Assembly (NCBI GenBank): GCA_022703405.1 | Contig: JAKLDT010000002.1 | Location: forward strand, 244 to 64,243 | Direction: 5' to 3' | Length of the DNA stretch: 64,000 bases | Origin: Bacteroidota bacterium | GTDB taxonomy: Bacteria > Bacteroidota > Bacteroidia > Bacteroidales > VadinHA17 | In this document: positions 9,747 through 54,185 of the stretch, piece after piece | How positions within the stretch are numbered: position 1 is the stretch's first letter | Layout: each line of letters opens with the position of its first letter | Made by a program: the position numbers and the translations under genes | The notes under the pieces: generated by a model | Database searches by the model: none | The model's input: only the letters and a program-made list of their open reading frames with translations | What the model was told of the DNA's origin: nothing

Positions 9747-9784
9747 CCAAGACTCTAAGGCACAAAGGATTCACAAAGTCTTGC
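9747..9784. repeat. Inverted pair of a caagact unit (7-bp stem, 22-nt loop) just after the stop codon of the 9791..11164 gene
   Basis: caagact at 9748-9754 pairs with agtcttg at 9777-9783. The unit gcaagact is the same as the 8-mer unit of the array at 25636..25699. Confidence 0.45.
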
Positions 9785-9790
9785 TAAAAT

Positions 9791-11164
9791 TTAAGCAACA
9801 GGATTGTCGGTAATTTCTTCTTTCACCCTGTCCCAATATAGCTTTTTACACTCCCTGTAGGCCCTTGTTGCCATAATTGCCGCAACAGAATGCCAGAAAC
9901 CTGTATGAATATTTCCGTTAGGAATCCTGCTCCTGTCACGCATGCAGTCAATCCAGTTGTCAAGGTGGTACTTGCTGTCGTCACTAAGGCTTACTGGCCC
10001 CATTTTCATGTCATACTCCGGAGTTGTGACTATCTCTGCCTTCTTTGTCCGAAGGGCTTCCTTCATTCCCTCATAGAAATCAAAGCCTCCGGGGAGATCC
10101 TGATGTTCATGAATAAAGAACCACCTGGGACTTCCTTCACCTCCATGAGCGAAGAGCGTTCCTTCCTTTCCCCTGATACAGGTATAATCACCGAATTTAT
10201 TTGCGTAGTTTGAAGTATATGAATACAGGAATTTCTTTTCATCATATGATGCAAGTGCCTGGAAGGTATCTGGATTCTGGCGGATATCCGGCCAGCCGAA
10301 AATACCTCCGTGAGCAACAACAGAATCAGGGATTGCAGTATCGGTGTAAAAATGCACCAGACCGGCTCCATGGCTCATCCATTGTGAGGTAATCCCGCCT
10401 GAGTAATCCCTGAAGATCCTGAATTCAAAATACTTCCACGGATCAAACGGGACATAAGGTTTACCCAGCAGCCAGCGTTTCCAGTCAGTATCCTCCTCCC
10501 TTATTGCAGCAACATCAGGATCGTCAGGTACATGCCACCGGGGACCGTTGTCGTTCCATACCTGTTCTATCTTTGTAATCTGTCCCAGCTTTCCCGATCT
10601 TATTATGTCCCTGACCTTTATCTGCATCGGATCGCTTAGCCATTGTGATCCCATCTGAACAACCTGGTTTGATTCCAGGACTGCCTTCCGTGCTAATTTT
10701 GCCTCATCAACATCAGTTGCCATAGGCTTTTCACAATAACAGTCCTTGCCTGCCCTTACAACTTCTGCAAGAAGTTTTGCATGCTGATGGTCACCAGTTG
10801 CTATCATCACGGCATCAAGTTCAGTCATGGCCAGAAAATCTTCGGAATATTTGAACTGCTTTACTTCAGTTCCGAAATTCGCCCTGCATGCTGTTGCTGC
10901 TTTTTCCCTGTTGATTTTCCAGATGTCACAAACGGCAACAACTCCCAGGTTTTTGTCCTTTGCCGACATTTTAACCATGTTCTGATGTCCCGATCCGCGG
11001 GCTCCGCAGCCCAGGAAGCCAATGTTTATCCTGTCATTGGCACCTTTGATCCTGTTGTAAGAGGCGGCACTAAATGCAACCGGGGATGAAGCCAGGGCTG
11101 TTCCGGCAATGGCAGTTGTTGTTTTCCCGATGAAATTTCTGCGAGTAAGATTTCGTGGTGTCAT
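9791..11164 (-). CDS. Gfo/Idh/MocA-family oxidoreductase with twin-arginine (TAT) signal, predicted periplasmic
   Basis: 457 aa. TAT-like signal LTRRNFIGKTTTAIAGTALASSP, Rossmann motif INIGFLGCGARG and the CEKPMA motif. Confidence 0.85.
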   Translation of the reverse strand: MTPRNLTRRNFIGKTTTAIAGTALASSPVAFSAASYNRIKGANDRINIGFLGCGARGSGHQNMVKMSAKDKNLGVVAVCDIWKINREKAATACRANFGTEVKQFKYSEDFLAMTELDAVMIATGDHQHAKLLAEVVRAGKDCYCEKPMATDVDEAKLARKAVLESNQVVQMGSQWLSDPMQIKVRDIIRSGKLGQITKIEQVWNDNGPRWHVPDDPDVAAIREEDTDWKRWLLGKPYVPFDPWKYFEFRIFRDYSGGITSQWMSHGAGLVHFYTDTAIPDSVVAHGGIFGWPDIRQNPDTFQALASYDEKKFLYSYTSNYANKFGDYTCIRGKEGTLFAHGGEGSPRWFFIHEHQDLPGGFDFYEGMKEALRTKKAEIVTTPEYDMKMGPVSLSDDSKYHLDNWIDCMRDRSRIPNGNIHTGFWHSVAAIMATRAYRECKKLYWDRVKEEITDNPVA

Positions 11165-11175
11165 TAGGTAGGTAG

Positions 11176-12504: not shown

Positions 12505-12541
12505 CCCCCTCCCGATAGCTATCGGGACCCCCCAAGGGGGG
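12505..12541. repeat. Two abutting GC-rich palindromes in the spacer between the oxidoreductase and MFS genes
   Basis: Perfect 18-nt palindrome tcccgatagctatcggga (12510-12527), followed directly by ccccccaagggggg (12528-12541). An extra C5 run at 12505-12509 could pair alternatively with the G-run. Confidence 0.8.
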
Positions 12542-13994: not shown

Positions 13995-14117
13995 CCACGG
14001 AGTTGCTCTGAGTTTACACTGAATTTCACTGTTTTTGGCACTTAATAATCAGAGTTCTTATTTATATCCTGAAAAAAACTTCGTGTCTTCCTCCGAGTGA
14101 CTCCGTTTACTCTGTGG
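13995..14117. repeat. Inverted pair of degenerate 10-nt-period tandem arrays flanking an AT-rich spacer
   Basis: Left arm 13995-14031: ggagt/tgagt and cactg/cactg recur at a 10-nt period. Right arm 14091-14117: ctccg recurs at a 10-nt period. The outer 9 nt ccacggagt (13995-14003) pair with actctgtgg (14109-14117), with one G-U. Confidence 0.7.
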
Positions 14118-14128: not shown

Positions 14129-15178
14129 TTAATACTTACCTGCAAACTCATCAGCATAATAATTAATCTGCTCATCAGTAAGATCGGCTCCTGAATTGAT
14201 AATAACCCTGTACCTGAAGGTAGCCGATTTACCTGAAGGAATTGAGAAATTGACTGATTCCTTTCCTGCAGTAAAGTCTTTTGCACCAAGGGGGTTAACC
14301 GAAAAAAGCCCATATCCCCTGGCATGCCAGTAAGTCGGGTAACTTTGGTTTTTTGGATGATCACATACAGTCACAGAAATAATCTCACTGCCAATTTTAC
14401 CGGACAGATCCATCCATTTTGCCCTTGTTCCCCATACAGCCTCGCCTGTGATTCCTTCACTGCTTCTGTAATTGCCGGTAATATCATCAGCGCCCTGTGC
14501 CTTTACCGTGGTTGTGCCTCCCTTTTGTTCCTGAAGTGTAATATCTTCATTTGTCGGAAGCTGCAGCTGTTTTGCTACTCTTATACCGAACATGCCTTCC
14601 TTGGTATCATTGAAGAACATGTCTCCACCTGTTGCAGTAAGTGTGGTTATCCTGTCAATTATTCTTGCATTGCCTTTACCCGAGAAATGATATTCCGATT
14701 TTTCTGAAAGCATTTCCTTTCCTGTACTGTCAACCCAGCTTTCATTTGAAATAATTATTCCTTCGCCGTTTTCCTCAGATATCCTGTCAAAACCAAGGTG
14801 TTTAATAACTCCTCCTGCCGGGTTTAATGATCCGCTTGATCCGTTACCCCAAAAATCAACTCCATTGACATTTCCGTAATTAAGCCATATCCCTACATGA
14901 TGTGCATGATCAGTGCTTTCACCTTCCCTTAATTCAAGAGGAAATCCCCTTGTTATAACAGTACCGGCGGAGGTGCAAACGGGATACAGCACGGGTTTGT
15001 AAACGTTTTCGGGCCAGCAGAAAGAAGTAAAGAGTCTGCCGTCAATATTAATATCAATTTTTTTCTCCGAAGACCTGTCAACCAGGGTCACTCCTGCTTG
15101 TTTTCCGGAAGGTCCTGATCCGCAGGAGCTTATTAGTAACAGACTGAGAAAAAGCAGCATCACAGATTTAGAATTCAT
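14129..15178 (-). CDS. DUF6807 / PmoA-family protein, lipoprotein
   Basis: The core KPVLYPVCTSAGTVITRGFPLELREGESTDHAHHVGIWLNYGNVNGVDFWGNG matches the family signature. The track ORF starts at a TTG (15226). The in-frame ATG at 15178 gives a clean lipoprotein signal, MNSKSVMLLFLSLLLISSC. Confidence 0.65.
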   Translation of the reverse strand: MNSKSVMLLFLSLLLISSCGSGPSGKQAGVTLVDRSSEKKIDINIDGRLFTSFCWPENVYKPVLYPVCTSAGTVITRGFPLELREGESTDHAHHVGIWLNYGNVNGVDFWGNGSSGSLNPAGGVIKHLGFDRISEENGEGIIISNESWVDSTGKEMLSEKSEYHFSGKGNARIIDRITTLTATGGDMFFNDTKEGMFGIRVAKQLQLPTNEDITLQEQKGGTTTVKAQGADDITGNYRSSEGITGEAVWGTRAKWMDLSGKIGSEIISVTVCDHPKNQSYPTYWHARGYGLFSVNPLGAKDFTAGKESVNFSIPSGKSATFRYRVIINSGADLTDEQINYYADEFAGKY

Positions 15179-15320
15179 AATCAGATAGTTAAGGTTAAAA
15201 ATCAGTATTTTAACAAATGTATCCAATAAACAATGAACTGCAAAATCTTTTAATGGTTTTCAGGCGGACCTTTAAAGTAATAAGCTAAATTGCCGCTTTT
15301 AAAGCATTAAACAAGAAAAA

Positions 15321-24904: not shown

Positions 24905-25282
24905 ATGATCAAGACGATTCTTCTTGTCGGAACAGGCGGATTTATCGGCAGTGTTTCGCGTTACCTGCTTTCAAGGTTTATGCAGGCAAGCTTCCCCTCT
25001 GCCTTTCCTTTAGGTACTTTTGCAGTAAACATCCTTGGCTGCCTGCTGATAGGGCTGATATACGGCCTCTCGGAAAAGAGCACAGCCATTACAATGGGAT
25101 GGAGATTATTCCTGGCTGTTGGCTTCTGCGGCGGATTCACAACATTTTCAACCTTTGCCAACGAGAACCTTGCTTTGCTCAGGGACGGAGAGTTCCTGTA
25201 TTTCTTTCTCTACACAGGTTTAAGTGTTCTGCTGGGGATTGCAGCCACTTTTTTTGGAGTGATAATCACTAAAATTTTCTGA
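24905..25282 (+). CDS. crcB: Fluoride ion channel CrcB/FluC
   Basis: 125 aa, 4 TM segments. Motifs GTGGFIGSVSRY and GFCGGFTTFSTF. Confidence 0.9.
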   Translation: MIKTILLVGTGGFIGSVSRYLLSRFMQASFPSAFPLGTFAVNILGCLLIGLIYGLSEKSTAITMGWRLFLAVGFCGGFTTFSTFANENLALLRDGEFLYFFLYTGLSVLLGIAATFFGVIITKIF

Positions 25283-25284
25283 AA

Positions 25285-25638
25285 ATGAAAGCCGGTGACA
25301 AAGCTAAAAGACTGAGGATATATATAAGCTCTACTGATAAGTATGAGCATAGCCCTCTGTATGAAGTAATTGTATATGCTGCCCGTGAAAAAGGGATTGC
25401 AGGGGCCACAGTTCTGAGGGGAATTATGGGTTATGGCTCAAGCAGTGAGGTATATACATCCAAACTATGGGAAATAACGGAAAAAGTACCCCTTGTTGTT
25501 GATATTGTTGATGACCCGGTGAAAATCAGTGCACTTCTTGAGGCACTGGAACCAATTTTCAAAAAAAGCGGGAAAGGTCATATTGTAACTGAAGAGGAGA
25601 CAACTATACTGCTGCACAGGACCGGAATTAAGAAGTGA
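25285..25638 (+). CDS. DUF190 (PII-like) protein commonly paired with crcB
   Basis: 117 aa with RLRIYISSTDKYEHSPLYEVIV...ATVLRGIMGYG. The gap to crcB is 2 nt. Confidence 0.8.
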   Translation: MKAGDKAKRLRIYISSTDKYEHSPLYEVIVYAAREKGIAGATVLRGIMGYGSSSEVYTSKLWEITEKVPLVVDIVDDPVKISALLEALEPIFKKSGKGHIVTEEETTILLHRTGIKK

Positions 25639-25699
25639 TTGGGTGATTGTGACCGCAAGACTGCAAGACCACAAGACTGCAAGACCGCAAGACCAGAAC
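25636..25699 (+). repeat. Degenerate tandem array with an exact 8-nt period, starting at the DUF190 stop codon
   Basis: Units are tgattggg, tgattgtg, accgcaag, actgcaag, accacaag, actgcaag, accgcaag, accagaac. The caag tetramer recurs at 25656, 25664, 25672, 25680 and 25688. Confidence 0.85.
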
Positions 25700-25733
25700 A
25701 AAGTGAACAGATTGTCAATCTTATTAAACAAAA

Positions 25734-27603: not shown

Positions 27604-27635
27604 AGGCCGTTTAAACAATAATAAATAAAGCAGGG

Positions 27636-36830: not shown

Positions 36831-36835
36831 GATTT

Positions 36836-38248
36836 ATGAAGGAACATTCAAATCAGATGATGTATGTCATCTGGCTCTCACTGGTAGCATCATTAGGTGG
36901 TTTTCTTTTCGGATATGATACCGCTGTTATCTCGGGTACTGTTGATCATGTAAAAACCCAGTTCAGACTGGATGATATGATGACAGGCTGGTATGTTGGC
37001 TGTGCATTGGCCGGGTCAATCGGTGGAGTGCTTTTTGCAGGTTCACTGAGTGATAAATACGGCAGAAAACTGGTTCTTTTCCTGTCAGCATTTCTCTTTT
37101 CAATTTCCGGGCTGGGCTGCATGATTGCGGCTGATGAGGTTCAGCTTGTAATAGCAAGGATACTTGGAGGTGTTGGTATTGGCGTTGCCTCTGTAATTTC
37201 GCCACTATATATCGCTGAGATTTCAATACCAAGCTTCAGGGGACGACTTGTCTCAATGTATCAGCTTGCCATTACAGTTGGTTTCCTTGGAGCTTACCTC
37301 GCAAACTTCGGTCTTCTGAACTATTCTGAAACCTTGCTTGCACAGGGAGCCACAGAAGGATTGTACAACAAGATCTTTGCCACTGAGGCCTGGAGAGGTA
37401 TGCTCGGTATGGAAGCTGTTCCAGCAATTCTTTTCCTTGCAGTACTTTTCTTTATTCCTGAAAGCCCCCGTTGGCTTATTGTTAAGGGACAGGAAGTTAA
37501 AGCATCAGTTATACTTGGTAAAATTTACGGAAAGGATCGCGCGGCAACTGAGATATCTAATGTAAAAAACCTTGTTTCTCAGGAAACTGAATCGAACTGG
37601 AAAATGCTTCTGCAACCAGGCTTCAGGCTTGCCCTGTTTATAGGAGTTGCACTGGCTATGCTGGGACAACTTATGGGAGTAAATGCAGTGCTTTATTACG
37701 GACCTACAATATTTAAGGAAAGCGGACTTTCAAGCGGGGATTCTCTTTTCTACCAGGTAATTGTTGGTCTTGTTAATATGTTAACAACAGTTCTGGCTCT
37801 TATTATTATCGACAAGGTCGGGAGAAAGCAGCTCGTTTACTGGGGTGTCTCCGGAATGATTGTGGCTCTGATACTTATTGGCTTTTATTTTTTAATGGGT
37901 GCTTCAATGAACATCTCCCAGACCTGGCTCCTTATCTTCTTCCTGTTTTACATTTTTGCCTGCGCGATTTCAATATGTGCTGTCATTTTCGTGCTTCTGT
38001 CAGAAATGTACCCTGTGAAAGTCAGGGGAGCTGCTATGTCAATAGCTGGTCTCTCACTCTGGATTGGAACATACCTTATCGGGCAGCTTACACCTGTTAT
38101 GCTCACAACCCTGACACCGGCAGGTACCTTTTTCTTCTTTGCAGTGATGTGTGTTCCTTATATCCTTATAGTATGGAAGCTTCTGCCTGAAACAACAGGA
38201 AAATCACTTGAGGAAATAGAGGAGATGTGGATGAAAAAGAAGGCGTAG
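36836..38248 (+). CDS. Sugar-porter-family MFS transporter
   Basis: Signatures GFLFGYDTAVISG, DKYGRK, PESPRWL and PETTGKSLEEIE. 12 TM segments. Confidence 0.88.
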   Translation: MKEHSNQMMYVIWLSLVASLGGFLFGYDTAVISGTVDHVKTQFRLDDMMTGWYVGCALAGSIGGVLFAGSLSDKYGRKLVLFLSAFLFSISGLGCMIAADEVQLVIARILGGVGIGVASVISPLYIAEISIPSFRGRLVSMYQLAITVGFLGAYLANFGLLNYSETLLAQGATEGLYNKIFATEAWRGMLGMEAVPAILFLAVLFFIPESPRWLIVKGQEVKASVILGKIYGKDRAATEISNVKNLVSQETESNWKMLLQPGFRLALFIGVALAMLGQLMGVNAVLYYGPTIFKESGLSSGDSLFYQVIVGLVNMLTTVLALIIIDKVGRKQLVYWGVSGMIVALILIGFYFLMGASMNISQTWLLIFFLFYIFACAISICAVIFVLLSEMYPVKVRGAAMSIAGLSLWIGTYLIGQLTPVMLTTLTPAGTFFFFAVMCVPYILIVWKLLPETTGKSLEEIEEMWMKKKA

Positions 38249-38295
38249 GGCGAAGGGCGCAGGGCGGAGGGCAGAAGGCGCAGGGCGGAGGGAAA
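38240..38295 (+). repeat. Heptamer tandem array (AGGGCGN-type, 8 in-phase units) spanning the sugar-porter stop codon. It contains a canonical G-quadruplex motif.
   Basis: The units are aaggcgt, agggcga, agggcgc, agggcgg, agggcag, aaggcgc, agggcgg and agggaaa. GGG tracts start at 38248, 38255, 38262, 38269, 38283 and 38290. Confidence 0.9.
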
Positions 38296-38332
38296 AACAG
38301 TAATAAACTGAATATTTATAAAAAAATATAAA

Positions 38333-39493
38333 ATGGATCACAAAGCATTAGCTAAATTATACAGGGATGAACTCCTTGAAAATGTACTGCCTTTCTGGCT
38401 TGAGAAATCACAGGACAAAGAGTACGGGGGATATTTCACCTGCCTCGACAGAAAGGGGAACGTATTTGATACAGATAAATTCATCTGGCTCCAGGGAAGG
38501 GAAGTATGGATGTTCTCCATGCTTTACAACAATCTTGAAAAGAATCCCGAATGGCTGAAATGTGCACAACAGGGCGGTGAGTTTCTCAAGCGTTACGGAC
38601 ACGACGGAAACCTCAACTGGTACTTTTCCCTTACAAAAGAGGGAAAACCTCTTATTGAACCTTATAATATCTTCTCATACACATTTGCCACCATGGCCTT
38701 CGGACAGCTGAGCAAAGCAACCGGAAGCCAGGAATATGCAGAAATAGCAAGAAAGACCTTTGATATTATCCTCTCAAAGGTTAGTAATCCGAAAGGCAAG
38801 TGGAGCAAGGTCCATCCGGGTACAAGGAATCTCAAGAATTTTGCCCTTCCGATGATACTCTGCAATCTTTCACTTGAAATTGAACACCTGCTTGAACCTG
38901 ATTTCCTGAGAAAGACAATTGACACCTGCATACATGAGGTGATGGACAATTTCTACAGACCGGAATTGGGACTTGTAATAGAGAATATAACAGAAGACAA
39001 TAAGCTTTCAGATACTTTTGAAGGACGCCTGCTCAATCCTGGTCATGCAATTGAGGCAATGTGGTTTATAATGGATCTGGGAGTAAGGCTTAATAATAAG
39101 GAGCTGATAGAAAAGGCAGCAAAGATTGCAGTTCAGATGACTGAATACGGCTGGGATGAAAAATACGGCGGTATATTATACTTCAAAGATCTTAAAGGTC
39201 ATCCTCCACAGCAGCTTGAATGGGACCAGAAACTATGGTGGGTACACAATGAGACACTTATATCGATGATTAAAGGGTATCAGCTTACAGGTTCAAAGGA
39301 TTGTCTTAAGTGGTTTGAAATAATTCACGACTACACCTGGGAACATTTCAAGGACAAGGAATACCCTGAATGGTGGGGTTACCTTAACAGGCAGGGTGAA
39401 GTGCTTCTCGACCTGAAGGGCGGCAAATGGAAAGGATGCTTCCATGTGCCACGGGGACTTTATCAGGTTTGGAAGACTCTTGAAAAACTCTGA
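38333..39493 (+). CDS. N-acylglucosamine 2-epimerase (AGE) superfamily protein
   Basis: 386 aa, (alpha/alpha)6-barrel type. N-terminal LYRDELLENVLPFWLEKSQDKEYGGYFTCLDRKG and C-terminal KGCFHVPRGL. Confidence 0.8.
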   Translation: MDHKALAKLYRDELLENVLPFWLEKSQDKEYGGYFTCLDRKGNVFDTDKFIWLQGREVWMFSMLYNNLEKNPEWLKCAQQGGEFLKRYGHDGNLNWYFSLTKEGKPLIEPYNIFSYTFATMAFGQLSKATGSQEYAEIARKTFDIILSKVSNPKGKWSKVHPGTRNLKNFALPMILCNLSLEIEHLLEPDFLRKTIDTCIHEVMDNFYRPELGLVIENITEDNKLSDTFEGRLLNPGHAIEAMWFIMDLGVRLNNKELIEKAAKIAVQMTEYGWDEKYGGILYFKDLKGHPPQQLEWDQKLWWVHNETLISMIKGYQLTGSKDCLKWFEIIHDYTWEHFKDKEYPEWWGYLNRQGEVLLDLKGGKWKGCFHVPRGLYQVWKTLEKL

Positions 39494-39496
39494 TAA

Positions 39497-40906
39497 TCAG
39501 GAGCAGACAGTTTCTATTTCCCTGACTGTTTTTGGTATTGCTTTGCCGAGAACCTTATGGCCTTTGTCGGTAATGAGGACATTGTCTTCTATTCTCACCC
39601 CTCCTACCGGCATGAATTTCAGGACTTTGTCATAACTGATGAAATCCCTGAATTTTCCTTCCATACTCCATTTGGCAACAAGTTCGGGAATAAAATAACA
39701 TCCGGGCTCTATTGTAAATACATGTCCCGGCTTGTACTGAAGCGCAAACCTCAGAAAGGCTGTGCCAAACTGTTTGCTTCTTTTTATTTCGTCACTGTAA
39801 CCCACATTATTTTCTCCAAGGCCTTCCATGTCATGTACATCAAGTCCCATCATGTGACCAATACCGTGAGGCATGAAAAGGGCATGTGCTCCAGCTTCCA
39901 CTGCATCTTCAATACTTCCCTTCATCAGCCCCAGACCCTTCATGCCCTCAGCTATTATCCTGCAGGCTATGAAATGAATATCTCTGTTTGAAATACCCGG
40001 TTTTGTGGCTTTAATAGCTTCGGTATTTGCCTTAAGAACAACCTCATACACATCTTTTTGCATTGAACTGAATTTACCGCCAACAGGAGTTGTACGTGTA
40101 ATGTCAGAGGAATAATGCAGGTTTGTTTCTGCACCAGCGTCGGTAACCATCATCTTATCCTTCTTGAGAATATTACCATGTGAATGATTATGGAGCGTCT
40201 GTCCGTTAATACTGAGAATAACAGGGAATGAGGTTCCGGCACCTTTGGCAAGAGCTATACCCTCTATTGCACCGAAAATCTCCTGCTCCCCGATGCCCAG
40301 CTTGCACATTTTCATTGCAGTTACATGCATATCATAGGCTATCTCCACTGCTTTTTCAATCTCATCAATTTCAATCTTCTCCTTTACCGACCTCATTGAG
40401 ACAACCGCTTTTATAAGCTCTCCGGAAGCCAGTGTTTTCATTTGACAGGGATTCTCTTTCAGGATTGAGCCCAGTAACATTTTCGATTCACCACGATAGG
40501 GAGGGAGAAAATGCACCCTCCTCTTTTTTAAAAGGGCTGCCTGTACCATCTCCTCAAGCTTAGCCATCGGGAATGTTGTTTTAATTCCGGATTTCGCGGC
40601 AAGTTCCTTTACTGTCGGTTGCGGCCCCATCCAGATTATGTCATCCATATCGAAATCGTTACCGAAGATAATATCGGTTCCGGAATCAAAATCTATAAGT
40701 GCTGCAAATCCCGGGAGATCAATCCCGAAGAAGTACAGAAAATCACTATCCTGCCTGAAATGATAGGTATTTGCAGGATAATTGAATGGTGATTCATTAT
40801 TGCCAATAAAAAGAGCAACCCCGCTTTTCATAAGCTTATGGAGTTGCTCTCTTCTTTTAATATATACCTCGCTCTTAAACATCGTCTTCAATATTTGTTG
40901 AAGCAT
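39497..40906 (-). CDS. Xaa-Pro aminopeptidase (M24B)
   Basis: 469 aa with an AMP_N-like N-terminal domain. Metal ligands are in DAGAE...HGIGHMMGLDVHD...TIEPG...RIEDNV. Confidence 0.85.
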   Translation of the reverse strand: MLQQILKTMFKSEVYIKRREQLHKLMKSGVALFIGNNESPFNYPANTYHFRQDSDFLYFFGIDLPGFAALIDFDSGTDIIFGNDFDMDDIIWMGPQPTVKELAAKSGIKTTFPMAKLEEMVQAALLKKRRVHFLPPYRGESKMLLGSILKENPCQMKTLASGELIKAVVSMRSVKEKIEIDEIEKAVEIAYDMHVTAMKMCKLGIGEQEIFGAIEGIALAKGAGTSFPVILSINGQTLHNHSHGNILKKDKMMVTDAGAETNLHYSSDITRTTPVGGKFSSMQKDVYEVVLKANTEAIKATKPGISNRDIHFIACRIIAEGMKGLGLMKGSIEDAVEAGAHALFMPHGIGHMMGLDVHDMEGLGENNVGYSDEIKRSKQFGTAFLRFALQYKPGHVFTIEPGCYFIPELVAKWSMEGKFRDFISYDKVLKFMPVGGVRIEDNVLITDKGHKVLGKAIPKTVREIETVCS

Positions 40907-40927
40907 CTAAGATAGCAAGGATTTTTG

Positions 40928-41019
40928 AGAGTGCCTAGAGTGCCTAAAGTGCCTAGAGTACTTAGAGTTATTATTACAATTCTGGTTCACTCCAAACTCT
41001 AGTTCACTCTAGGCACTCT
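40928..41019. repeat. Inverted pair of 9-nt-period arrays (unit AGTGCCTAG) forming a long hairpin that begins in the qNOR stop codon
   Basis: The left arm has units at 40930, 40939, 40948, 40957 and 40966 (agtgcctag, agtgcctaa, agtgcctag, agtacttag, agttattat). The right arm (40985-41019) carries the reverse-complement units. A perfect 13-bp outer stem joins agagtgcctagag (40928-40940) and ctctaggcactct (41007-41019). Confidence 0.88.
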
Positions 41020-43252
41020 TCTTCAAGCTCCAACCTCCCTTCAGTCCGAAGATAAACCAGGCCAGGGCAACAGTTCCGAGTGCAAAAATTGTATCACCTA
41101 TAACCCTTAACCATTTAAGAGTTGTGATAGACGGTTGCTGCATGAATTCTGCCGATCGGGCATACCATAAACCTTCCCTGACACTGGCGACTGTCTGTGC
41201 AAGACCAATTGGCAGAACACTTATCAGAACCATGGCAGCAAGACCGATATTTATGCTCCAGAATGCAAATTTTATCCATTTCTCGTTCCATACAGCTTCT
41301 TTGTCCATATCCCTGAGCACAAACAGCATAAGCCCAATGCCCAGCATTCCGTAAACTCCGAATAAAGCAGTATGTCCGTGTACCGGTGTTGTATTAAGTC
41401 CCTGCATGTAATAAAGTGCAATTGGCGGGTTAATAAGGAAGCCGAAGATTCCAGCTCCCACAAGGTTCCAGAAGGCCACTGCTATGAAACTGTATACCGG
41501 CCATTTATATGCTTTTATCCATGTTGTGCTTCTGCTCAGCTTCACATTGTCCCATGCTTCAAATCCCATCAGCACAAGCGGCACCACCTCAAGCGCGCTG
41601 AATGTAGCTCCAAGGGCCATAACCGCCGTAGGTGTTCCCGTGAAATACAGATGATGAAAAGTTCCCAGGATTCCGCCGGCAAGAAATACTATTGTTGAGA
41701 ACAGAACAGCAGTTGTTGCTGTTGCTGCCCTGAGCAACTGAAGCCTTACGAAGAGGAATGCCACCACAACAGCTGCAAATACTTCAAAAAATCCTTCGAC
41801 CCAGAGATGAACCACCCACCAGCGCCAGTATTCAGCAACAGCAAGGTTGGTCTGCCTGCCCCACATGAGTCCGGCGCCATAGAAAGCGGCTATTGCAATA
41901 GTTGAAATAAGGAACAGAATAAGCAGATTCCTGTTTTCTGATTTCTGCTTAAGCGCCGGCCAGATAGCCCTTCCCATAAGAAGAAGCCAGATTACAAGTC
42001 CCACAAAAAGGAACAACTGCCAGAACCTTCCCAGATCGACATATTCATAGCCCTGATGTCCGAACCAGAAGTTTGTTACATAACCCATTTTCTGCATCAC
42101 CCCCATCCACTGACCGAACAATGATCCAAGTACGATCACAAGCAGTGCGCTGAAAAGAAAATTCACTCCAAGTTTCTGAAATTTTGGTTCGACGCCTGAT
42201 ATAGCCGGTGCATAGTATAAACCTGTTGCCAGCCACGAGGTTGCAATCCAGAATATTGCTATCTGTATATGCCATGTTCTTGAAACAGAGTAAGGCAGAA
42301 ACTTGGAAAGCGGTATCCCGTACAAAGACTGGCCTTCAACACCATAGTGAGCAGTGATGACACCCATGCCAACCTGAACCAGCAATAAAGCAGAAACAAT
42401 CCAGAAGTATTTTACTGTTGCTTTCTGTGATGGAGTCTGCTTTTCGTTTTTTAAAGGCATTATACTGGGAAAACTACCAGCCTCCTCATTTTTCCTTGTT
42501 GCATAATACCAGGCCATTAATCCAATACCGGCCAGAAGGATTATTACACTGAAACCTGTCCATAATACAAGCGAACCTGTTGGCTTGTTACCCACGAGTT
42601 CATCAGCCGGCCAGTTGTTTGTATACGTTATATCCTGACCGGGACGTTCAGTAACACAGGCCCAGGATATCCAGAAGAAAAAGGAATTAAGATCCGAAAC
42701 CCGTTCAGGATCTCTCAGTGAATTCTCAGGAATACTGTAAGCATCACGCAGTTCTGACTGAGCCGGATCGTTTGTAAAAAGACCAGCATAAAACCTGCTG
42801 TTCGATTCAATAGCCTCTGCTCTCAGACCTGATACCGTAAGCGTTTTGGAATCAGGATTATATGTGTTTTTTCGGAGCTCCTTCTGCAGAAGCACTTTAT
42901 AGTAGGCTTTTCTTTCATCGCTCAAATCATTATATCCTTTACCTTCCTGCTGAACAGCCATTTTGTCAAGCATGTAAACAGCTTCCCTGTGAAGCCAGTC
43001 GGCACTCCAGTCAGGTGCCTGATAGGCTCCATGTCCCCAGACAGTGCCAATTTCCTGGCCACCCATCGACTGCCAGGCATTCTGACCATCCTTTATATCC
43101 TGACCGGAGAAAAGAACAGTTCCGTCACTTTTAAGTACCTTTTCGGGTACAGGTGGTGCCTGCTTATAAATCTCCCTTCCGAAGTACAGAAGGACTGCAA
43201 AAGAAATTGCCATTACGAGAATGAATCCCAGCCATAGTTTTTGTACTTTCAT
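41009..43252 (-). CDS. norB: Quinol-dependent nitric-oxide reductase, single large subunit (qNOR, heme-copper oxidase superfamily)
   Basis: 747 aa. N-terminal TM anchor plus a periplasmic extension, then 12+ TM segments with conserved His ligands (HLWVEGFFE, HHLYF, HGHTALFG). Confidence 0.88.
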   Translation of the reverse strand: MKVQKLWLGFILVMAISFAVLLYFGREIYKQAPPVPEKVLKSDGTVLFSGQDIKDGQNAWQSMGGQEIGTVWGHGAYQAPDWSADWLHREAVYMLDKMAVQQEGKGYNDLSDERKAYYKVLLQKELRKNTYNPDSKTLTVSGLRAEAIESNSRFYAGLFTNDPAQSELRDAYSIPENSLRDPERVSDLNSFFFWISWACVTERPGQDITYTNNWPADELVGNKPTGSLVLWTGFSVIILLAGIGLMAWYYATRKNEEAGSFPSIMPLKNEKQTPSQKATVKYFWIVSALLLVQVGMGVITAHYGVEGQSLYGIPLSKFLPYSVSRTWHIQIAIFWIATSWLATGLYYAPAISGVEPKFQKLGVNFLFSALLVIVLGSLFGQWMGVMQKMGYVTNFWFGHQGYEYVDLGRFWQLFLFVGLVIWLLLMGRAIWPALKQKSENRNLLILFLISTIAIAAFYGAGLMWGRQTNLAVAEYWRWWVVHLWVEGFFEVFAAVVVAFLFVRLQLLRAATATTAVLFSTIVFLAGGILGTFHHLYFTGTPTAVMALGATFSALEVVPLVLMGFEAWDNVKLSRSTTWIKAYKWPVYSFIAVAFWNLVGAGIFGFLINPPIALYYMQGLNTTPVHGHTALFGVYGMLGIGLMLFVLRDMDKEAVWNEKWIKFAFWSINIGLAAMVLISVLPIGLAQTVASVREGLWYARSAEFMQQPSITTLKWLRVIGDTIFALGTVALAWFIFGLKGGWSLKKSA

Positions 43253-43822: not shown

Positions 43823-43824
43823 AT

Positions 43825-50808: not shown

Positions 50809-52359
50809 ATGGCCCAGGAAGACAATTTCAGGAAATTTGTGGCACATTGCAAGGAATATGGTTATGTATTCCCTTCAAGTGAGATATATGACGGACTCAG
50901 TGCGGTTTACGATTACGGACAGTATGGTGTTGAGCTGAAGAATAATATCAAGAAGTACTGGTGGGACAGCATGGTCCTGCTCAATGACAATATTGTCGGT
51001 ATCGACTCTGCCATTTTCATGCATCCCACTATCTGGAAAGCTTCCGGTCATGTTGATGCCTTCAATGATCCGCTTATCGACAATAAGGATTCAAAGAAAA
51101 GGTACAGGGCTGATGTCCTCATAGAAGATCATATAGCAAAGATCGAGGAAAAGATAAATAAGGAAGTTGAAAAAGCCCGCCAGAGGTTTGGTGAAGCTTT
51201 CGATGAGAAGAAATTCCGCGAGACAAATCAGCGCGTGCTTGAAAACCAGGGAAAGATTGACGAGATAAATGCAAGGTTTGCAAAAGCGCTGAATGAGACC
51301 GACCTCCCCGGAATAAGGCAGATCATTATTGACAATGAGATTGTATGCCCGATATCCGGTACCCGCAACTGGACAGAAGTAAGACAGTTTAACCTTATGT
51401 TCTCAACCGAGATGGGTTCAACATCAGAAGGAGCCAACAAGATCTATCTCCGCCCGGAAACAGCGCAGGGTATTTTTGTGAACTTCCTTAATGTTCAGAA
51501 AACAGGAAGAATGAAACTGCCTTTCGGTATAGCACAGATAGGCAAGGCATTCAGGAATGAGATCGTTGCCCGCCAGTTCATCTTCAGAATGAGGGAATTT
51601 GAACAGATGGAAATGCAATTTTTTGTGCAGCCGGGAACAGAGCTGGAGTGGTTTGCCAAGTGGAAGGAAACAAGGATGAAGTGGCACCAGGCCCTTGGAT
51701 TCGGCAGCGAAAAATATCGGTTCCACGACCATACAAAGCTTGCACATTATGCGAATGCCGCAACCGATATAGAATTCAAATTCCCCTTCGGATTCAAAGA
51801 GGTGGAAGGAATACACTCAAGAACTGATTTTGACCTAAAACAGCATCAGGAATACAGTGGTAAGAAAATCCAGTATTTCGATCCCGAGAAAGGTGAATCT
51901 TATGTTCCTTATGTTATTGAGACATCAATTGGCGTCGACAGGATGTTCCTCCAGGTAATTTCAGCCTCTTATGCTGAGGAAGAGCTTGTTAAGGAAGACG
52001 GAACAAAAGATACAAGGGTTGTCCTTCGTCTTCCGGCATACCTTGCTCCTGTTAAGCTTGCAGTAATGCCGCTTGTGAAGAAAGACGGCCTCCCTGAAAT
52101 AGCAGAGAGAATAGTTCATGACCTGAAGTTCGATTTCAACTGCCAGTATGATGACAAGGATTCAATCGGAAGACGTTACAGGCGACAGGATGCAATCGGT
52201 ACCCCATACTGCATAACAATTGACCATCAAACACTTGAAGATAACAGTGTTACTATACGTTACCGCGATTCAATGGAACAGGAAAGAGTGAATATTTCCC
52301 AGCTTAAGAACATAATTACAGAGAAGGTTTCGATACAGAGTCTGTTGAAAAAGCTATAA
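50809..52359 (+). CDS. glyQS: Glycine--tRNA ligase (dimeric class II type)
   Basis: 516 aa. YGYVFPSSEIYDGL, LRPETAQG, FRNE and the GVDR class II motifs. Confidence 0.92.
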   Translation: MAQEDNFRKFVAHCKEYGYVFPSSEIYDGLSAVYDYGQYGVELKNNIKKYWWDSMVLLNDNIVGIDSAIFMHPTIWKASGHVDAFNDPLIDNKDSKKRYRADVLIEDHIAKIEEKINKEVEKARQRFGEAFDEKKFRETNQRVLENQGKIDEINARFAKALNETDLPGIRQIIIDNEIVCPISGTRNWTEVRQFNLMFSTEMGSTSEGANKIYLRPETAQGIFVNFLNVQKTGRMKLPFGIAQIGKAFRNEIVARQFIFRMREFEQMEMQFFVQPGTELEWFAKWKETRMKWHQALGFGSEKYRFHDHTKLAHYANAATDIEFKFPFGFKEVEGIHSRTDFDLKQHQEYSGKKIQYFDPEKGESYVPYVIETSIGVDRMFLQVISASYAEEELVKEDGTKDTRVVLRLPAYLAPVKLAVMPLVKKDGLPEIAERIVHDLKFDFNCQYDDKDSIGRRYRRQDAIGTPYCITIDHQTLEDNSVTIRYRDSMEQERVNISQLKNIITEKVSIQSLLKKL

Positions 52360-52430
52360 AAGCTTTAAAAGCTGTAGAGGCTGTAAAGGCTGTAAAGGCG
52401 ATAAGGACTATGAAAGTTGTTGAAGCTTAG
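52357..52430 (+). repeat. Left 9-nt-period array (consensus NTARAGGCT, ~8 units) starting at the glyQS stop codon
   Basis: The units are taaaagctt, taaaagctg, tagaggctg, taaaggctg, taaaggcga, taaggacta, tgaaagttg and ttgaagctt. The array is the reverse complement of the array at 52872..52943. Confidence 0.88.
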
Positions 52431-52456
52431 TAGAAATTATTCATAGATTTAATTTT

Positions 52457-52813
52457 ATGGCTCATCCCTGGAAAGACCTGGTTGTATGGCAGAAATCTCA
52501 TAAGCTGGTCATAGAAATATATAAAGCAACTGAGATCTTTCCTGATAAAGAAAGATTCGGATTAACCCAACAATTAAGAAGATCAGCAGTTTCTGTTGCT
52601 GCAAACATTGTTGAAGGTAAATCAAGGAAAACCGATAAAGAATTTGCATCTTTTTTATATAACTCAAGGGGATCTCTTGAAGAAACAAGATATCATTTAC
52701 TCTTGTCGAGAGATTTGAATTACATCAATCCTGAAGACTATGAGGCAATTGAAAAGATGGCTGCTGAGGTCAGCTATTTATTGAATAAACTAATTTCGGT
52801 AACTTTGAAATAA
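52457..52813 (+). CDS. Four-helix-bundle protein (23S rRNA intervening-sequence protein / Avd-like family)
   Basis: 118 aa. LVVWQKSHKLVIEIYKAT..FP..ERFGLTQQLRRSAVSVAANIVEG...EF..FL..S.GSL.E..Y.L.L is the family signature. Confidence 0.85.
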   Translation: MAHPWKDLVVWQKSHKLVIEIYKATEIFPDKERFGLTQQLRRSAVSVAANIVEGKSRKTDKEFASFLYNSRGSLEETRYHLLLSRDLNYINPEDYEAIEKMAAEVSYLLNKLISVTLK

Positions 52814-52829
52814 CATCTTTGCCGAATCC

Positions 52830-54185
52830 ATGATTTCCGAAAACACAAATACCTATTACCCTCATGGTGATGCCCCTTTAGCCCCTGCGTCTTCTAACAC
52901 CTCTATAGCCTCTAAAGCCTCTATTGCCTCTAAAGCTCTAATCATAACATACTACTGGCCGCCAAGCGGAGGTGCAGGAGTACAGCGATGGCTTAAATTT
53001 GCAAAATACCTTCCTGAATACGGGTGGGAACCTGTCATTCTCACTGTCGATCCGGCTTATGCCGCATACCCGGCCACTGACAGTTCTCTTGAAAAGGAAA
53101 TACCAGGCTCTCTGAGAGTATTCAGAACAGCAGCTACAGACTGGTTCAGAATATATTCAGCTGACAAATCGAAGGTTCCTTCAGCAGGTTTTTCAAAGGG
53201 AACAGGCAACTCATTCAAATCGAAACTTAGCAGGTTTATCAGGGGTAATTTTTTTATCCCCGATCCAAGAAGGGGCTGGAACAGACACGCATACACAAAA
53301 GCCTGTGAAATAATAGAAAAGGAGAAAATTGTAACATTTGTTACAACCAGTCCTCCTCATTCCACTCAGCTTATAGGTCTTAAACTGAAGAAAAAATTCC
53401 CGGAACTGAAATGGATTGCCGACCTGAGGGACCCATGGACGGATATATATTACTATGATCAGTTTTTCCCTACAATTTTCTCAAAAAAAATTGATAAGCG
53501 CTACGAACAATCTGTGCTGGAAAAGTCTGACAGAATAATTACTGTTGGCAACATGCTTCTTGACCTGTTTGAAAAGAAGGTTCCCGGGCTGAGATCAAAA
53601 AGCACAGTGATAAGCAACGGATTTGATGAACATGATTTTAATGAGCTTTTAAGCAAAATCCCTGAGGTCTTTACAATTACATACGTTGGCACAATTTCTG
53701 AAAAGTATCCTGTTGACGGACTCATCTCAGCTCTTCATAACCTTACAGGAAAAGGAATACAATTCAGGTTAAGGTTCACCGGAACAATACCTGAAAACAT
53801 AAAGCAGAAAATTTCAGCAGCTGTTAATGTGGATTTCATTGAGTTTATACAATATGCACCACACAATGAAGCTGTCAGTTACATGGCTGATTCATCAATC
53901 CTGGTACTTATTATTCCTGATGCCGGTGATAACAGGCTGATTATTACAGGCAAGCTTTTTGAATACGCTGCAACGCGAAAACCAATTTTGTGCATTGGCC
54001 CGGTTGACGGAGAAGCGGCAAAAATAATCTCTGAGCTTCATGCAGGAGAATGTTTCACTTACTCTGACTCTGCCGGAATCGAAAATTTCATATCAGGTCA
54101 TTTTAATAAACCTGAAATGACTCATTCTGATCCCTCAAAATATTCACGCAGAATGCTTACTGAAAAACTGGCTTCCGTCCTTTGA
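52830..54185 (+). CDS. Glycosyltransferase (GT-B fold, GT4-like); the N-terminal ~38 codons are repeat-derived
   Basis: The conserved core starts at LIITYYWPPSGGAGVQRWLKF. There is no in-frame ATG between 52830 and the core. Codons 15-38 are the 9-nt repeat array. Confidence 0.7.
   Translation: MISENTNTYYPHGDAPLAPASSNTSIASKASIASKALIITYYWPPSGGAGVQRWLKFAKYLPEYGWEPVILTVDPAYAAYPATDSSLEKEIPGSLRVFRTAATDWFRIYSADKSKVPSAGFSKGTGNSFKSKLSRFIRGNFFIPDPRRGWNRHAYTKACEIIEKEKIVTFVTTSPPHSTQLIGLKLKKKFPELKWIADLRDPWTDIYYYDQFFPTIFSKKIDKRYEQSVLEKSDRIITVGNMLLDLFEKKVPGLRSKSTVISNGFDEHDFNELLSKIPEVFTITYVGTISEKYPVDGLISALHNLTGKGIQFRLRFTGTIPENIKQKISAAVNVDFIEFIQYAPHNEAVSYMADSSILVLIIPDAGDNRLIITGKLFEYAATRKPILCIGPVDGEAAKIISELHAGECFTYSDSAGIENFISGHFNKPEMTHSDPSKYSRRMLTEKLASVL
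52872..52943 (+). repeat. Right 9-nt-period array (8 units), the inverted partner of 52357..52430, lying inside the annotated 5' end of the glycosyltransferase ORF
   Basis: The units are gccccttta, gcccctgcg, tcttctaac, acctctata, gcctctaaa, gcctctatt, gcctctaaa and gctctaatc. The reverse complement reads (t/a)tagaggc(t/a). Confidence 0.88.

Follow-up and report, generated by a model that had tools for sequence, protein, structure and literature searches.

In the window, the whole 64-kb stretch of Bacteroidales DNA analysed here, eight spacers between genes of the same orientation were described in an initial annotation as carrying degenerate short-period arrays or palindromes, mostly anchored at the upstream stop codon. 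This raised the question of what these elements are and why they lie at gene ends. The window belongs to a 3.4-Mb metagenome-assembled genome (MAG; 382 contigs, 75% complete), for which genes were called with a crude ORF model and arrays were detected genome-wide with Tandem Repeats Finder at periods of 6-12. All eight loci were confirmed from the sequence; the gene model used gave 14 same-strand spacers longer than 70 nt, compared to 15 counted before. However, the eight loci had been treated as one set, and they are heterogeneous: three classes had been merged, namely one-armed unstructured arrays, inverted pairs forming hairpins, and unrelated dispersed palindromes.

One-armed arrays were identified at three positions on the plus strand. 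The 8-mer array GACCGCAA/GACTGCAA at 25651-25694 (5.5 copies, period 8, score 67-79) follows the TGA stop codon at 25636-25638 and is unstructured (z = +1.6); it is missing from the sister genome G007, where the spacer is 22 nt. At 33127-33158, a purine-rich heptamer array of AAGGCGA directly follows the sdhA stop codon TAA at 33124-33126 (33133-33156, period 7, 3.4 copies, score 41). Other G-rich heptamers are present at the sdhA stop in G007 and G005, and none in G010. The third array, GGGCGNA with 7.3 copies at 38242-38292 (period 7, score 51-79), contains the TAG stop codon at 38246-38248 of a gene for an MFS transporter, and its centroid fold is essentially unstructured. The same junction has no array in G023, G010 and G013 (8, 17 and 25 nt, respectively) and different arrays in G007 and G005.

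Inverted arrays were found on the minus strand. At 40928-41019, an empty hairpin is formed by inverted 9-mer arrays of the TAGAGTGCC family (40928-40968, period 9, score 61; inverted arm 40996-41019), one arm of which supplies the TAG stop codon of the gene at 41009-43252. It folds with -45.7 kcal/mol (z = -6.86, or -6.9 for the hairpin at 40915-41025), and the array family was also identified at the corresponding junction in G005. The inverted arrays at 13995-14117, 11 nt after the stop of the gene at 14129-15226, belong to the 10-mer family CACRGAGNNN with at least 14 loci in the genome and form a moderate hairpin (-27.6 kcal/mol, z = -2.06); for 14008-14031, a period of 11 was detected (score 34). 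This array was found in G007, and the G005 spacer is 26 nt. At 9747-9784, 6 nt after the stop of the gene at 9791-11164, a weak inverted unit caagact...agtcttg occurs together with degenerate CACAAAGG-like 8-mers. Its fold (-11.8 kcal/mol, z = -0.95) is not significant by itself; G007 has a related sequence, and G005 lacks it.

The pattern of the window extends to the whole genome, and the window is richer in arrays than the genome average. At a score of at least 50, 134 arrays were identified in intergenic and 32 in coding sequence, which is a 44-fold difference in density, and 112 arrays were counted in real spacers versus 0.7 ± 1.1 in 20 dinucleotide shuffles of the spacers. Thus, the earlier claim that the arrays exceed chance is borne out. 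At a score of at least 45, 74 of 579 same-strand spacers longer than 70 nt (12.8%) bear an array. Heptamers are the dominant period, and the units form dozens of families with periods of 6-10 nt; many loci and several species have families in common. Within single arrays the units drift stepwise, for example, from AAGTCGG to AAGACGG to AAGGCGG.

The census, which had been suggested as a check in the initial annotation, revealed an enrichment at gene 3' ends. From 99 same-strand arrays, 42 lie within 5 nt of the upstream stop and 10 at the downstream start, while random positioning of the arrays in 2000 trials gave an expectation of about 22 at the stop and a maximum of 38. The distances described for the eight loci also agree with the sequence. 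The stop codon lies within the array at 38246-38248, 41009-41011 (minus strand) and 52357-52359, the array begins right behind the stop at 33126 and at 25638, and the remaining three loci are 6-7, 11 and 25 nt away. The density per kb was 1.18 in convergent, about 0.7 in same-strand and 0.30 in divergent spacers. Arrays keep their purine-rich strand on the mRNA: the sense strand of stop-proximal arrays was purine-rich in a ratio of 44:10 in same-strand and 32:5 in convergent spacers, compared to 300:324 in array-free spacers, and G exceeded C on the sense strand in a ratio of 41:11. TAG accounts for 54% of the stop codons adjoining arrays versus 21% genome-wide (p = 1e-10). A median of 41 nt remains between the last array and the following start, indistinguishable from the whole length of same-strand spacers without arrays (median 39.5 nt, p = 0.76). 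The upstream ORF is unchanged and has the array at its 3' edge, with a spacer of normal length left before the next gene. Even where the spacer is long, arrays start 0-5 nt from native stops, which tolerance alone is insufficient to explain.

The comparison to sister genomes, proposed along with the census, showed that arrays are absent or different at matching junctions. Because the orthologous spacers in congeners are 1-25 nt long or contain different arrays, the arrays are fast-turnover insertions and not conserved regulators. It was thereby shown that they are insertions or expansions at intercistronic junctions rather than conserved host signals. From the two possibilities offered in the initial annotation, a generative mechanism acting at gene ends is upheld, in that the arrays are insertions, anchored at stops and strand-specific. 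A systematic host function between cistrons finds no support as a general rule, since both the presence and the unit sequence vary between sister species.

A different view of the arrays is given by the element at 52349-52943, which is a cassette of the intervening sequence (IVS) type between proS and a glycosyltransferase gene. On the plus strand, a left purine-rich 9-mer arm AAAGCTGTA/GAGGCTGTA at 52349-52430 overlaps the proS stop codon at 52357-52359 (52349-52396, period 9, score 61). A right pyrimidine-rich 9-mer arm CCTCTAAAG at 52872-52943 (52900-52941, score 56-68) is complementary to it, and both arms pair in the minimum free energy and centroid folds of the cassette. Between the arms, a gene of family PF05635 at 52457-52813 (Pfam E = 4.5e-40) codes for a 23S rRNA intervening-sequence protein (IVP, or S23p), an Avd-like four-helix bundle, which among solved structures is most similar to Xanthomonas XCC0516 (PDB 2GSC, E = 1.6e-21). 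Read in frame, the right arm is an N-terminal extension of the glycosyltransferase ORF at 52830-54185; the ORF is homologous to the glycosyltransferases of relatives from residue 41 onwards, and MNKVLIIT, the native start, is replaced. G007, G005 and G010 lack the arm and the entire cassette, and the gap between proS and the glycosyltransferase gene is TAAaATG there. A metagenome contig with 95% identity contains the cassette, with a left arm that differs in unit number and sequence and a right arm with unit substitutions.

The arrays are the same elements as those bracketing PF05635 genes, a connection which was not seen in the initial annotation. In this genome, complementary arrays flank every one of the five PF05635 genes that could be assessed, and the unit is different for each gene; a sixth lies at a contig end. 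In the genus, nearly all of 56 PF05635 genes are bracketed by complementary arrays, with an inverted-alignment score of at least 20 for 39 of 56 cassettes versus 1 of 56 in the reversed control. Cassettes with more similar proteins also tend to have more similar arms (Mantel r = 0.19, with 0 of 2000 permutations as high). Inverted arms were counted phylum-wide in 9 of 29 cases (control 0 of 29). For Bacteria and Archaea, an array is present on at least one side of the PF05635 gene in 66 of 76 cases, and the inverted score is at least 16 in 38 of 76 versus 2 of 76; among the cassette arms seen across phyla are units rich in AT. In IVP-rich genomes, 20-kb regions chosen at random contained 12 heptamer arrays, in 8 of 20 regions, compared to one array in IVP-free genomes, where 19 regions were used, 17 of them full-length. 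The comparison takes no account of phylogeny, and the two genome sets differ in GC content (0.43 versus 0.49).

Solo arrays are matched by the genome's own cassettes in 35 of 172 cases; with foreign cassettes drawn at random, the number was 14.4 ± 8.6. In the window, the array at 25651-25694 has 6-mers in common with GCAAGACCT, an arm of a congener's IVP cassette (0.30 versus a null 95th percentile of 0.19), and 40928-41019 shares 6-mers (0.39) with the arms of the genome's own cassette on contig C268. In the sample of 56 cassettes, nothing corresponds to the largest solo families, AAGGCGN/GGGCGNA and CACRGAGNNN. Since no remnants of PF05635 were detectable in array spacers, the descent of solo arrays from cassettes is a conjecture. 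The association of PF05635 with arrays joins two unexplained features of bacterial genomes.

On balance, we lean towards the reading that the window samples fast-evolving short-period arrays of the IVS type, which are genome- and genus-wide and are tolerated at gene 3' ends. The arrays, with periods of mostly 7 and also 8-10 nt, would exist in three forms: as a complementary pair enclosing the PF05635 four-helix-bundle gene in an IVS-type cassette (52349-52943), as a complementary pair with a short loop, forming an empty hairpin (40928-41019, 13995-14117), and as a single purine-rich arm directly behind the stop codon (25651, 33127, 38242). They may behave as selfish or near-neutral elements, with the stop-codon edge and the sense orientation being where they are tolerated or targeted. 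Copy number would shift by replication slippage, and the complementarity of the arms might be maintained by selection for the stem or by template switching. By analogy, paired arms would give a long double-stranded RNA stem within polycistronic transcripts. In the Coxiella burnetii 23S rRNA IVS, the ORF is preceded by GACAGAT tandem heptamers, the number of which varies between strains, and RNase III cleaves at the first repeat (PMC4990558). A gene for RNase III is encoded in the genome, and the paired forms are probably RNase III substrates, cut in the stem as this S23p-bearing IVS is at its heptamer repeats; their processing is plausible by comparison with such rRNA intervening sequences. 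Most heptamer arrays are one-armed, with strong inverted complementarity in only 14% of period-7 spacers, and spacers with arrays show no more structure than those lacking them (median z of -1.33 versus -1.29). The one-armed forms probably have no structural role; they might be halves, either newly arising or decayed, or else sites at which cassettes land.

It is possible, if doubtful, that the arrays are ordinary long simple-sequence repeats, generated from polymerase-favoured heptamers by slippage only and unrelated to PF05635, with their position resulting only from purifying selection that removes insertions at other sites and PF05635 genes sharing the permissive sites incidentally. The gradual drift of units, the variation of copy number at 95% identity, the absence of IVP relics and of cassette counterparts for the biggest solo families, and a density ranking of convergent over tandem over divergent, as predicted by tolerance, are consistent with slippage, and both a heptamer excess and the hypothesis of slippage have been published before (Mrazek 2007, as cited in PMC4679880). 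However, slippage is blind to stop codons and to the mRNA strand, and neither the starts at 0-5 nt from native stops nor the sense purine bias of 44:10 would be expected from it. In addition, complementary arrays flank PF05635 genes far above the spacer base rate of 6-13%, heptamers are almost missing from the sampled IVP-free genomes, and identical unit families are present at many loci and in several species. That the whole is due to chance or to an artefact of assembly or ORF calling might be suspected from a fragmented MAG and a crude gene model, but this was refuted by the shuffle and cross-genome controls: the architecture recurs in many species whose genomes were assembled independently, complete genomes included, and stop codons do not depend on the calling of starts.

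Host-selected intercistronic signals, as put forward in the initial annotation, would act in termination or insulation, in processing or stability of the upstream cistron, or in binding of a regulatory protein. The regular position and strand, the G-rich heptamers after the sdhA stop in three species, the transcription of most such repeats in Xanthomonas (PMC4692102) and the very stable hairpin at 40928-41019 would fit this proposal. It is nevertheless improbable, since congener junctions of 1-25 nt lack the element, unit sequence is not conserved, one-armed arrays are unstructured, and neither terminator-like T-runs after the arrays nor Rfam matches to them were found; moreover, arrays lie within obligate operons like sdhA-sdhB, where termination would be harmful. 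Very unlikely is the idea, put forward before for GGGAATC and GGGGATT, that G-rich arrays act by folding into G-quadruplexes, either in the mRNA or in the non-template DNA strand. At 38249-38292, GGG tracts recur every 7 nt with 4-nt loops, the G excess of stop-proximal arrays lies on the sense strand, and related repeats form quadruplexes in vitro (PMC4692102). However, most units contain only GG or no G-run (AAGGCGA, GAAGTCG, CTGATAG), the 8-10-mer families are not G-rich, and AT-rich units occur in cassette arms across phyla.

For the Xanthomonas GGGAATC and Nostoc GGGGAYT tandem heptamers, an over-representation between co-oriented genes and rarity between divergent ones was reported (Rehm et al. 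2015, PMC4692102). These repeats lie mostly within 50 bp of the stop or overlap it, with the G-rich strand as coding strand; convergent (inverted) pairs are frequent, and the length varies between close species (PMC4692102). The arrays described here resemble them in being tandem, commoner between co-oriented than between divergent genes and stop-proximal, in coding-strand polarity, inverted pairs and variable length, and in Xanthomonas and Pseudoxanthomonas GGGAATC-type heptamers bracket the PF05635 gene in the order accB-IVP-accC, a link not drawn by Rehm et al. (2015, PMC4692102). In contrast to the one dominant unit in each of those systems, dozens of families are present here, most of their units are unable to form three-tetrad quadruplexes, and turnover between congeners is much higher; of the Xanthomonas repeats, 83% are common to Xcc and Xac (PMC4692102). 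TAACTGA heptamers of Beggiatoaceae, cyanobacteria and some Bacteroidetes (MacGregor 2015, PMC4679880) are likewise intergenic and tandem and at times overlap stops; unlike the arrays here, they have one unit, are oriented towards start codons just downstream, and were read as sites for translational regulators. In the same study, other heptamer arrays were noted in spacers of Gramella, Aequorivita and Elizabethkingia and were missing from close relatives. Long simple-sequence repeats (Mrazek 2007) and cyanobacterial STRR heptamers (Mazel 1990) are, as far as they are described in PMC4679880 and PMC4692102, similar head-to-tail intergenic repeats of 5-11 nt in scattered lineages, with heptamers commonest and slippage proposed; in these descriptions, stop anchoring, mRNA-strand polarity, inverted pairing and a PF05635 association do not appear, and Bacteroidales are not highlighted. 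Of the same build as 52349-52943 are the ORF-bearing 23S rRNA IVS of Coxiella burnetii and Leptospira (PMC4990558), with a PF05635 ORF in complementary stem-forming termini. However, the cassette lies between protein-coding genes instead of in helix 45, its arms are long 9-mer arrays, and most arrays of the genome carry no ORF.

REP/BIME and REPIN-RAYT elements of Proteobacteria are abundant extragenic repeats at gene 3' ends and inside operons; they form hairpins, can stabilise the upstream mRNA and are associated with a dedicated small gene. The arrays share the siting at 3' ends and in operons, the hairpins and the small gene. Whereas the arrays are tandem and have locus-specific units, each REP is one conserved palindrome of 20-40 nt, and a RAYT has a single family sequence; PF05635 is not a Y1 transposase. 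Better REP analogues are the E1-E3 palindromes of the window. Two locations were rejected as arrays and are copies of these dispersed families, namely 12505-12541 (no strand assigned), with the palindromes TCCCGATAGCTATCGGGA (E2) and CCCCCCAAGGGGGG (E3), and the hairpin at 33176-33212 on the plus strand, an E1 copy of CCCCTCy...GGAGGGG with a CTGGGGG tail. The fold of the whole spacer holding the latter has z = -0.4, and the counterpart of 12505-12541 in G005 is a 42-nt spacer without E2 and E3. The pair of palindromes at 12505-12541 and the CCCCTCC hairpin are thus dispersed REP-like repeats, distinct from the arrays and using the same permissive sites, with about 79 copies of E1 in the genome (68 intergenic), 31 of E2 (30 intergenic) and 28 of E3 (27 intergenic).

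Short-period tandem arrays were collected throughout the source genome of the window (G000; 3.43 Mb, 382 contigs, 42% GC, about 75% complete), whose nearest relatives by proS are uncultured Bacteroidales and Prolixibacteraceae MAGs. Genes were assigned by a crude model in which ORFs were ranked by codon usage, giving 2829 genes and 91% coding sequence; the positions of stop codons are independent of start calling. With Tandem Repeats Finder (TRF) at periods of 6-12 and a score of at least 50 (at least 45 for unit lengths and some of the counts), 134 arrays were identified in 297 kb of noncoding DNA versus 32 in the 3.13 Mb that is coding, which makes them 44 times denser in noncoding sequence. 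At a score of at least 50, the spacers contained 112 arrays, compared to 0.7 +/- 1.1 in 20 dinucleotide-preserving shuffles, and heptamers made up 101 of the 180 intergenic arrays with a score of at least 45. The array pattern is real and general and not a product of chance, and the counts are underestimates, since such repeats break short-read assemblies, which is also of practical concern. Many contigs of G000 terminate within arrays, for example C103, C214, C232, C335 and C268.

The arrays are anchored to stop codons. Their density per kb was 1.18 in convergent, about 0.7 in same-strand and 0.30 in divergent spacers. Among 99 same-strand arrays, 42 overlapped the upstream stop or lay within 5 nt of it, where random placement gave about 22 (maximum 38 in 2000 trials), and 10 were located that near to the downstream start. 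The stretch between the last array and the following start had a median of 41 nt, compared to 39.5 nt for a whole array-free same-strand spacer (p = 0.76). Because this remainder matches the normal spacer length, an array-bearing spacer can be described as an ordinary spacer with an array at its stop-codon edge. That the anchoring stems from tiny ancestral spacers was ruled out by the same normal remainder and by arrays that sit at the stop with 100-500 nt of spacer behind them. Stop-proximal arrays were also purine-rich on the sense strand (44:10 in same-strand and 32:5 in convergent spacers), while the first 40 nt of array-free spacers showed no purine bias (300:324). Of the stops adjacent to arrays, 54% were TAG versus 21% genome-wide (p = 1e-10) and 13% were TGA versus 32%; the TAG excess is due either to an AG(G) context supplied by the first unit or to a preference for genes ending in TAG. 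The initial annotation had proposed that arrays accumulate systematically at gene ends. The opposite case, in which they would be no more frequent there than elsewhere or than in random sequence, is contradicted by the spacer excess, the stop anchoring and the strand bias.

The eight spacers on which that proposal was based, located between 9747 and 52943, were all found as described; for same-strand spacers longer than 70 nt, 14 were counted with the crude gene model instead of 15. The set is heterogeneous. One-armed direct arrays are present at 25651-25694 (period 8, TRF score 79), 33133-33156 (period 7, score 41) and 38242-38292 (period 7, score up to 79), and these do not fold: the z value for 25630-25735 was +1.6, and the centroid structure of 38235-38335 is almost empty. 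TRF further supported arrays at 14008-14031, at 40928-40968 and 40996-41019 (periods 9 and 10), and at 52349-52396 and 52900-52941 (period 9). The inverted arrays of 40928-41019 fold into a strong hairpin (-45.7 kcal/mol, z = -6.9) and 13995-14117 into a moderate one (z = -2.1), and the arms at 52349 and 52900 pair with a gene between them. Three arrays contain the stop codon (at 38246, 41009 and 52357), and two follow it immediately (stops at 33126 and 25638). For the inverted unit at 9747-9784, the fold of the element alone was not significant (z = -0.95). The elements at 12505-12541 and 33176-33212 are dispersed palindromes, from families with about 31, 28 and 79 copies in the genome that are almost all intergenic. 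These families (E1-E3: CCCCTCC..GGAGGGG, TCCCGATAGCTATCGGGA and C6N2-4G6) are scattered through the genome and nested in one another, reminiscent of the nested small repeats dispersed in cyanobacterial genomes; in the same-genus genome G007, the spacer orthologous to 38249-38332 has a TCCCGATAACTATCGGGA unit within a CCCCTCC…GGGGTGGG element. Outside the eight spacers, AT-rich arrays of 11-15 nt units (GGAAATCTTAA, AATATTTCTAAAA) were identified at 2483-2515 and 2576-2619, within a 353-nt spacer upstream of a SusD-like gene; their composition is unlike that of the purine-rich class.

Termination had been among the functions suggested for these elements. Strong inverted complementarity was found in 53% of the period-9 spacers and in only 14% of the period-7 spacers. 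For the heptamer majority, a reading of all arrays as hairpins or terminators was rejected: 24 of 180 arrays passed a strict inverted-partner test versus 10 of 180 in the control, the fold z values are like those of array-free spacers (medians of -1.33 for array-bearing and -1.29 for array-free spacers), and no T-runs follow the arrays. The arrays do not correspond to intrinsic terminators. In the region 25000-42000, 14 terminator-like sites with a GC-rich stem and a T/U run were counted, a number not above that of shuffles, and none was located inside an array spacer. The hairpin reading is kept for the 9-mer class. An Rfam search of the window gave no match, and a G-quadruplex pattern (at least four runs of at least three G with short loops) is present at 38249-38292 and absent from most units.

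The comparison with sister species drew on the same-genus genomes G005, G007 and G010, which are syntenic with the window. At the junction of the MFS and epimerase genes, the spacer is repeat-free in G010 (17 nt) and in the further congeners G023 (8 nt) and G013 (25 nt); in the window it measures 84 nt and contains GGGCGNA units, while G007 has 150 nt with other units and nested palindromes, and G005 has 244 nt with inverted arrays (GTCATT/AATGAC). Behind an identical C-terminus and TAA stop of sdhA, three species contain differing G-rich heptamers that start at +1 to +4 and form a hairpin in G005; G010 has none. The 8-mer array (25651-25694) is missing in G007, where the spacer has 22 nt, and the 10-mer hairpin (13995-14117) is found in G007 and missing in G005, where the spacer has 26 nt, while the 9-mer hairpin (40928-41019) is common to the window and G005. 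Arrays are therefore quickly gained, lost and replaced at the same stops with the upstream protein unchanged. In G005, the junction of the DUF190 and URO-D-like genes (25639-25733 in the window) was found to contain about 1 kb of extra DNA, compared to the 8-mer array of the window and the 22 nt of G007; by this comparison, the junction is a site of recurrent insertion. A metagenome scan over the 38242-38292 array with fixed flanks gave no match.

In the cassette at 52349-52943, the left 9-mer arm and the right arm (52872-52943) enclose an ORF at 52457-52813 for a protein of the PF05635 family, the 23S rRNA IVS protein or S23p (Pfam E = 4.5e-40); within the eight loci, such a gene is present in the cassette only. 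The closest solved structure is that of Xanthomonas XCC0516 (PDB 2GSC). Pairing of the two arms was predicted in the MFE as well as in the centroid fold. In G007, G005 and G010, proS and the glycosyltransferase gene are separated by just TAAaATG, and at this place the window has about 590 extra bases that comprise the two arms and the gene between them. The glycosyltransferase has lost its native start, MNKVLIIT; its ORF begins at a new ATG at 52830 and reads through the right arm. This results in a 40-residue N-terminal extension (52830-52949) absent in the relatives, part of which is encoded by the right arm (…TSIASKASIASKAL…); no alternative in-frame ATG was found upstream of the region homologous to the relatives. 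The replacement of MNKVLIIT accompanied the insertion of the cassette. Since arrays can replace gene starts in this way, annotation is affected. A metagenome scan with the proS 3' end identified one 95%-identical contig with the same cassette, in which the left arm is longer, differing by about two units and in unit sequence. Soon after the proS stop, differing heptamer or 9-mer arrays were also observed in distant Bacteroidales (Prevotella, Prevotellaceae, Bacteroidaceae and Bacteroidales MAGs; loci L015, L022, L026, L029, L034 and L035, at about 4540-4700, for L022 at 5196-5366). Here, L034 has an inverted pair TAGTGAA/ACTATTC just after the stop, and in L022 such a pair (AGCAGACA/GCTTGTCT) is located about 700 nt farther on.

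The association of PF05635 genes with arrays extends beyond the window. In G000, all six PF05635 genes adjoin arrays, and in the five that could be assessed, a purine-rich array on the left faces its complement on the right, with a unit that differs for each cassette. Within the genus (56 genes, 25 genomes), a left-right inverted score of at least 20 was obtained for 39 of 56 genes versus 1 of 56 in the reversed control. Protein identity predicts the similarity of the arms (Mantel r = 0.19, with none of 2000 permutations as high): the share of array 6-mers in common was 0.44 for protein pairs of more than 80% identity and 0.02 for pairs below 50%. Bacteroidota-wide, the inverted arm pattern was found in 9 of 29 cases versus 0 of 29 in the control. 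A wider search with the single 2GSC sequence as query yielded 76 loci from Proteobacteria, Acidobacteria, Planctomycetes, Nitrospirae, CPR, Firmicutes and archaea, of which 66 have a neighbouring array, 37 of them on both sides, with an inverted score of at least 16 in 38 versus 2 in the control. In Xanthomonas vasicola and a Pseudoxanthomonas MAG (L181 and L182), the gene orthologous to XCC0516 lies between accB and accC; GGGAATC-type heptamers begin at the accB stop (about 655-700), and the complementary heptamers run up to the accC start (about 1060-1110). These GGGAATC repeats were described by Rehm et al. without mention of the PF05635 gene (PMC4692102).

On a tie between solo arrays and cassettes, the evidence points both ways. 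By shared 6-mers, the G000 cassettes match 35 of 172 solo arrays, compared to 14.4 +/- 8.6 for random foreign sets (p about 0.02), and 51 foreign cassettes combined match 77 of 172. Of six sites with a cassette in relatives, three to four have a solo array in G000. In random 20-kb regions, 12 heptamer arrays were found in 8 of 20 PF05635-rich Bacteroidota genomes and one in the regions of 19 PF05635-free genomes (17 full-length), in a comparison uncorrected for shared ancestry. That solo arrays are decayed cassettes is unsupported, with no PF05635 remnant detected by a six-frame HMM search of all spacers of at least 90 nt (best E-value 1.4), and among the sampled cassettes none corresponds to the largest solo families (AAGGCGN/GGGCGNA and the 10-mers). 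The idea that complementary arrays also flank other genes from farther away was likewise rejected, since inverted array pairs more than 150 nt apart show no excess except for the PF05635 cassette. Derivation of units from local native sequence was considered for proS, where AAAGCTTTA resembles the unit AAAGCTGTA, and for the MFS tail; at two other empty sites no resemblance was found, and the likeness at proS and MFS is anecdotal.

With respect to known classes, the arrays are a case of long simple-sequence or heptamer repeats (LSSR, unit 5-11 nt): they have head-to-tail units beyond chance (112 versus 0.7) and a slippage-like variability in copy number between close genomes, as seen in the 95%-identical contig and the congeners. 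Stop proximity and strand bias of heptamers have already been reported for Xanthomonas and Nostoc (PMC4692102). With cyanobacterial STRR, which have defined units in heterocystous cyanobacteria, the differing, diverse units of this Bacteroidales MAG have only the general kind in common. REP/BIME-REPIN elements have one conserved palindrome per family, unlike the locus-specific direct-repeat units of the arrays, and their dispersed-palindrome feature fits E1, E2 and E3 (79, 31 and 28 copies). The cassette shares its PF05635 gene and complementary, stem-forming termini with the 23S rRNA IVS that carries an S23p ORF; however, it is not inserted in a 23S rRNA helix, since it sits between proS and the glycosyltransferase gene in a window without an rRNA match. 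MITEs have terminal inverted repeats, a target-site duplication and a transposase-bearing parent; at the cassette, inverted arms and an empty site are documented, and no clear target-site duplication and no transposase were identified. To our knowledge, PF05635 proteins have no transposase activity.

What is new is the large number of unit families and their rapid turnover in a Bacteroidales lineage and a demonstrated tie of arrays to IVS-type PF05635 cassettes. The reading favoured here is that arrays are selfish or near-neutral elements that insert at the edge of stop codons. For the rRNA IVS of Coxiella, strain-variable GACAGAT heptamers and cleavage by RNase III have been described (Warrier et al., PMC4990558). 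By this analogy, the paired forms are favoured to be RNase III substrates, and G000 encodes an RNase III gene. Exact stop anchoring and polarity keep an mRNA-linked mechanism in consideration. In the most far-reaching version, which we regard as rather improbable, the Avd-like four-helix-bundle proteins of PF05635 and the arrays would form one self-propagating system: each PF05635 lineage would recognize a 7-10-nt unit of its own, a mechanism acting via the mRNA would put cassettes precisely at translation stops, which would account for strand polarity and stop anchoring, and solo arrays would be the traces of the system, as footprints or landing pads. Such a system would cover the heptamers of Xanthomonas, cyanobacteria and Bacteroidota.

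Tandem heptamers are the commonest long simple-sequence repeat in prokaryotes, and we know of no accepted origin or function for them since their description in cyanobacteria in 1990, nor of a role for the large PF05635 family with its solved structures. To this, G000 contributes a dense and diverse case with clean empty-site comparisons to sister species and quantitative rules (stop-codon edge, purine strand on the mRNA, TAG favoured, quick turnover), and the finding that these arrays also flank PF05635 genes, in lineages from Bacteroidales to Xanthomonas.

In relatives, PF05635 genes were observed in clusters of three to five copies per 10-25 kb, each with its own array unit, as in L130 (G001:C71:8800-26400), L132/L133 (G009:C1), L134 (G006:C45) and L117 (G004:C8). 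The window cassette also borders a glycosyltransferase-rich region. These observations suggest that PF05635 cassettes prefer surface-polysaccharide loci.
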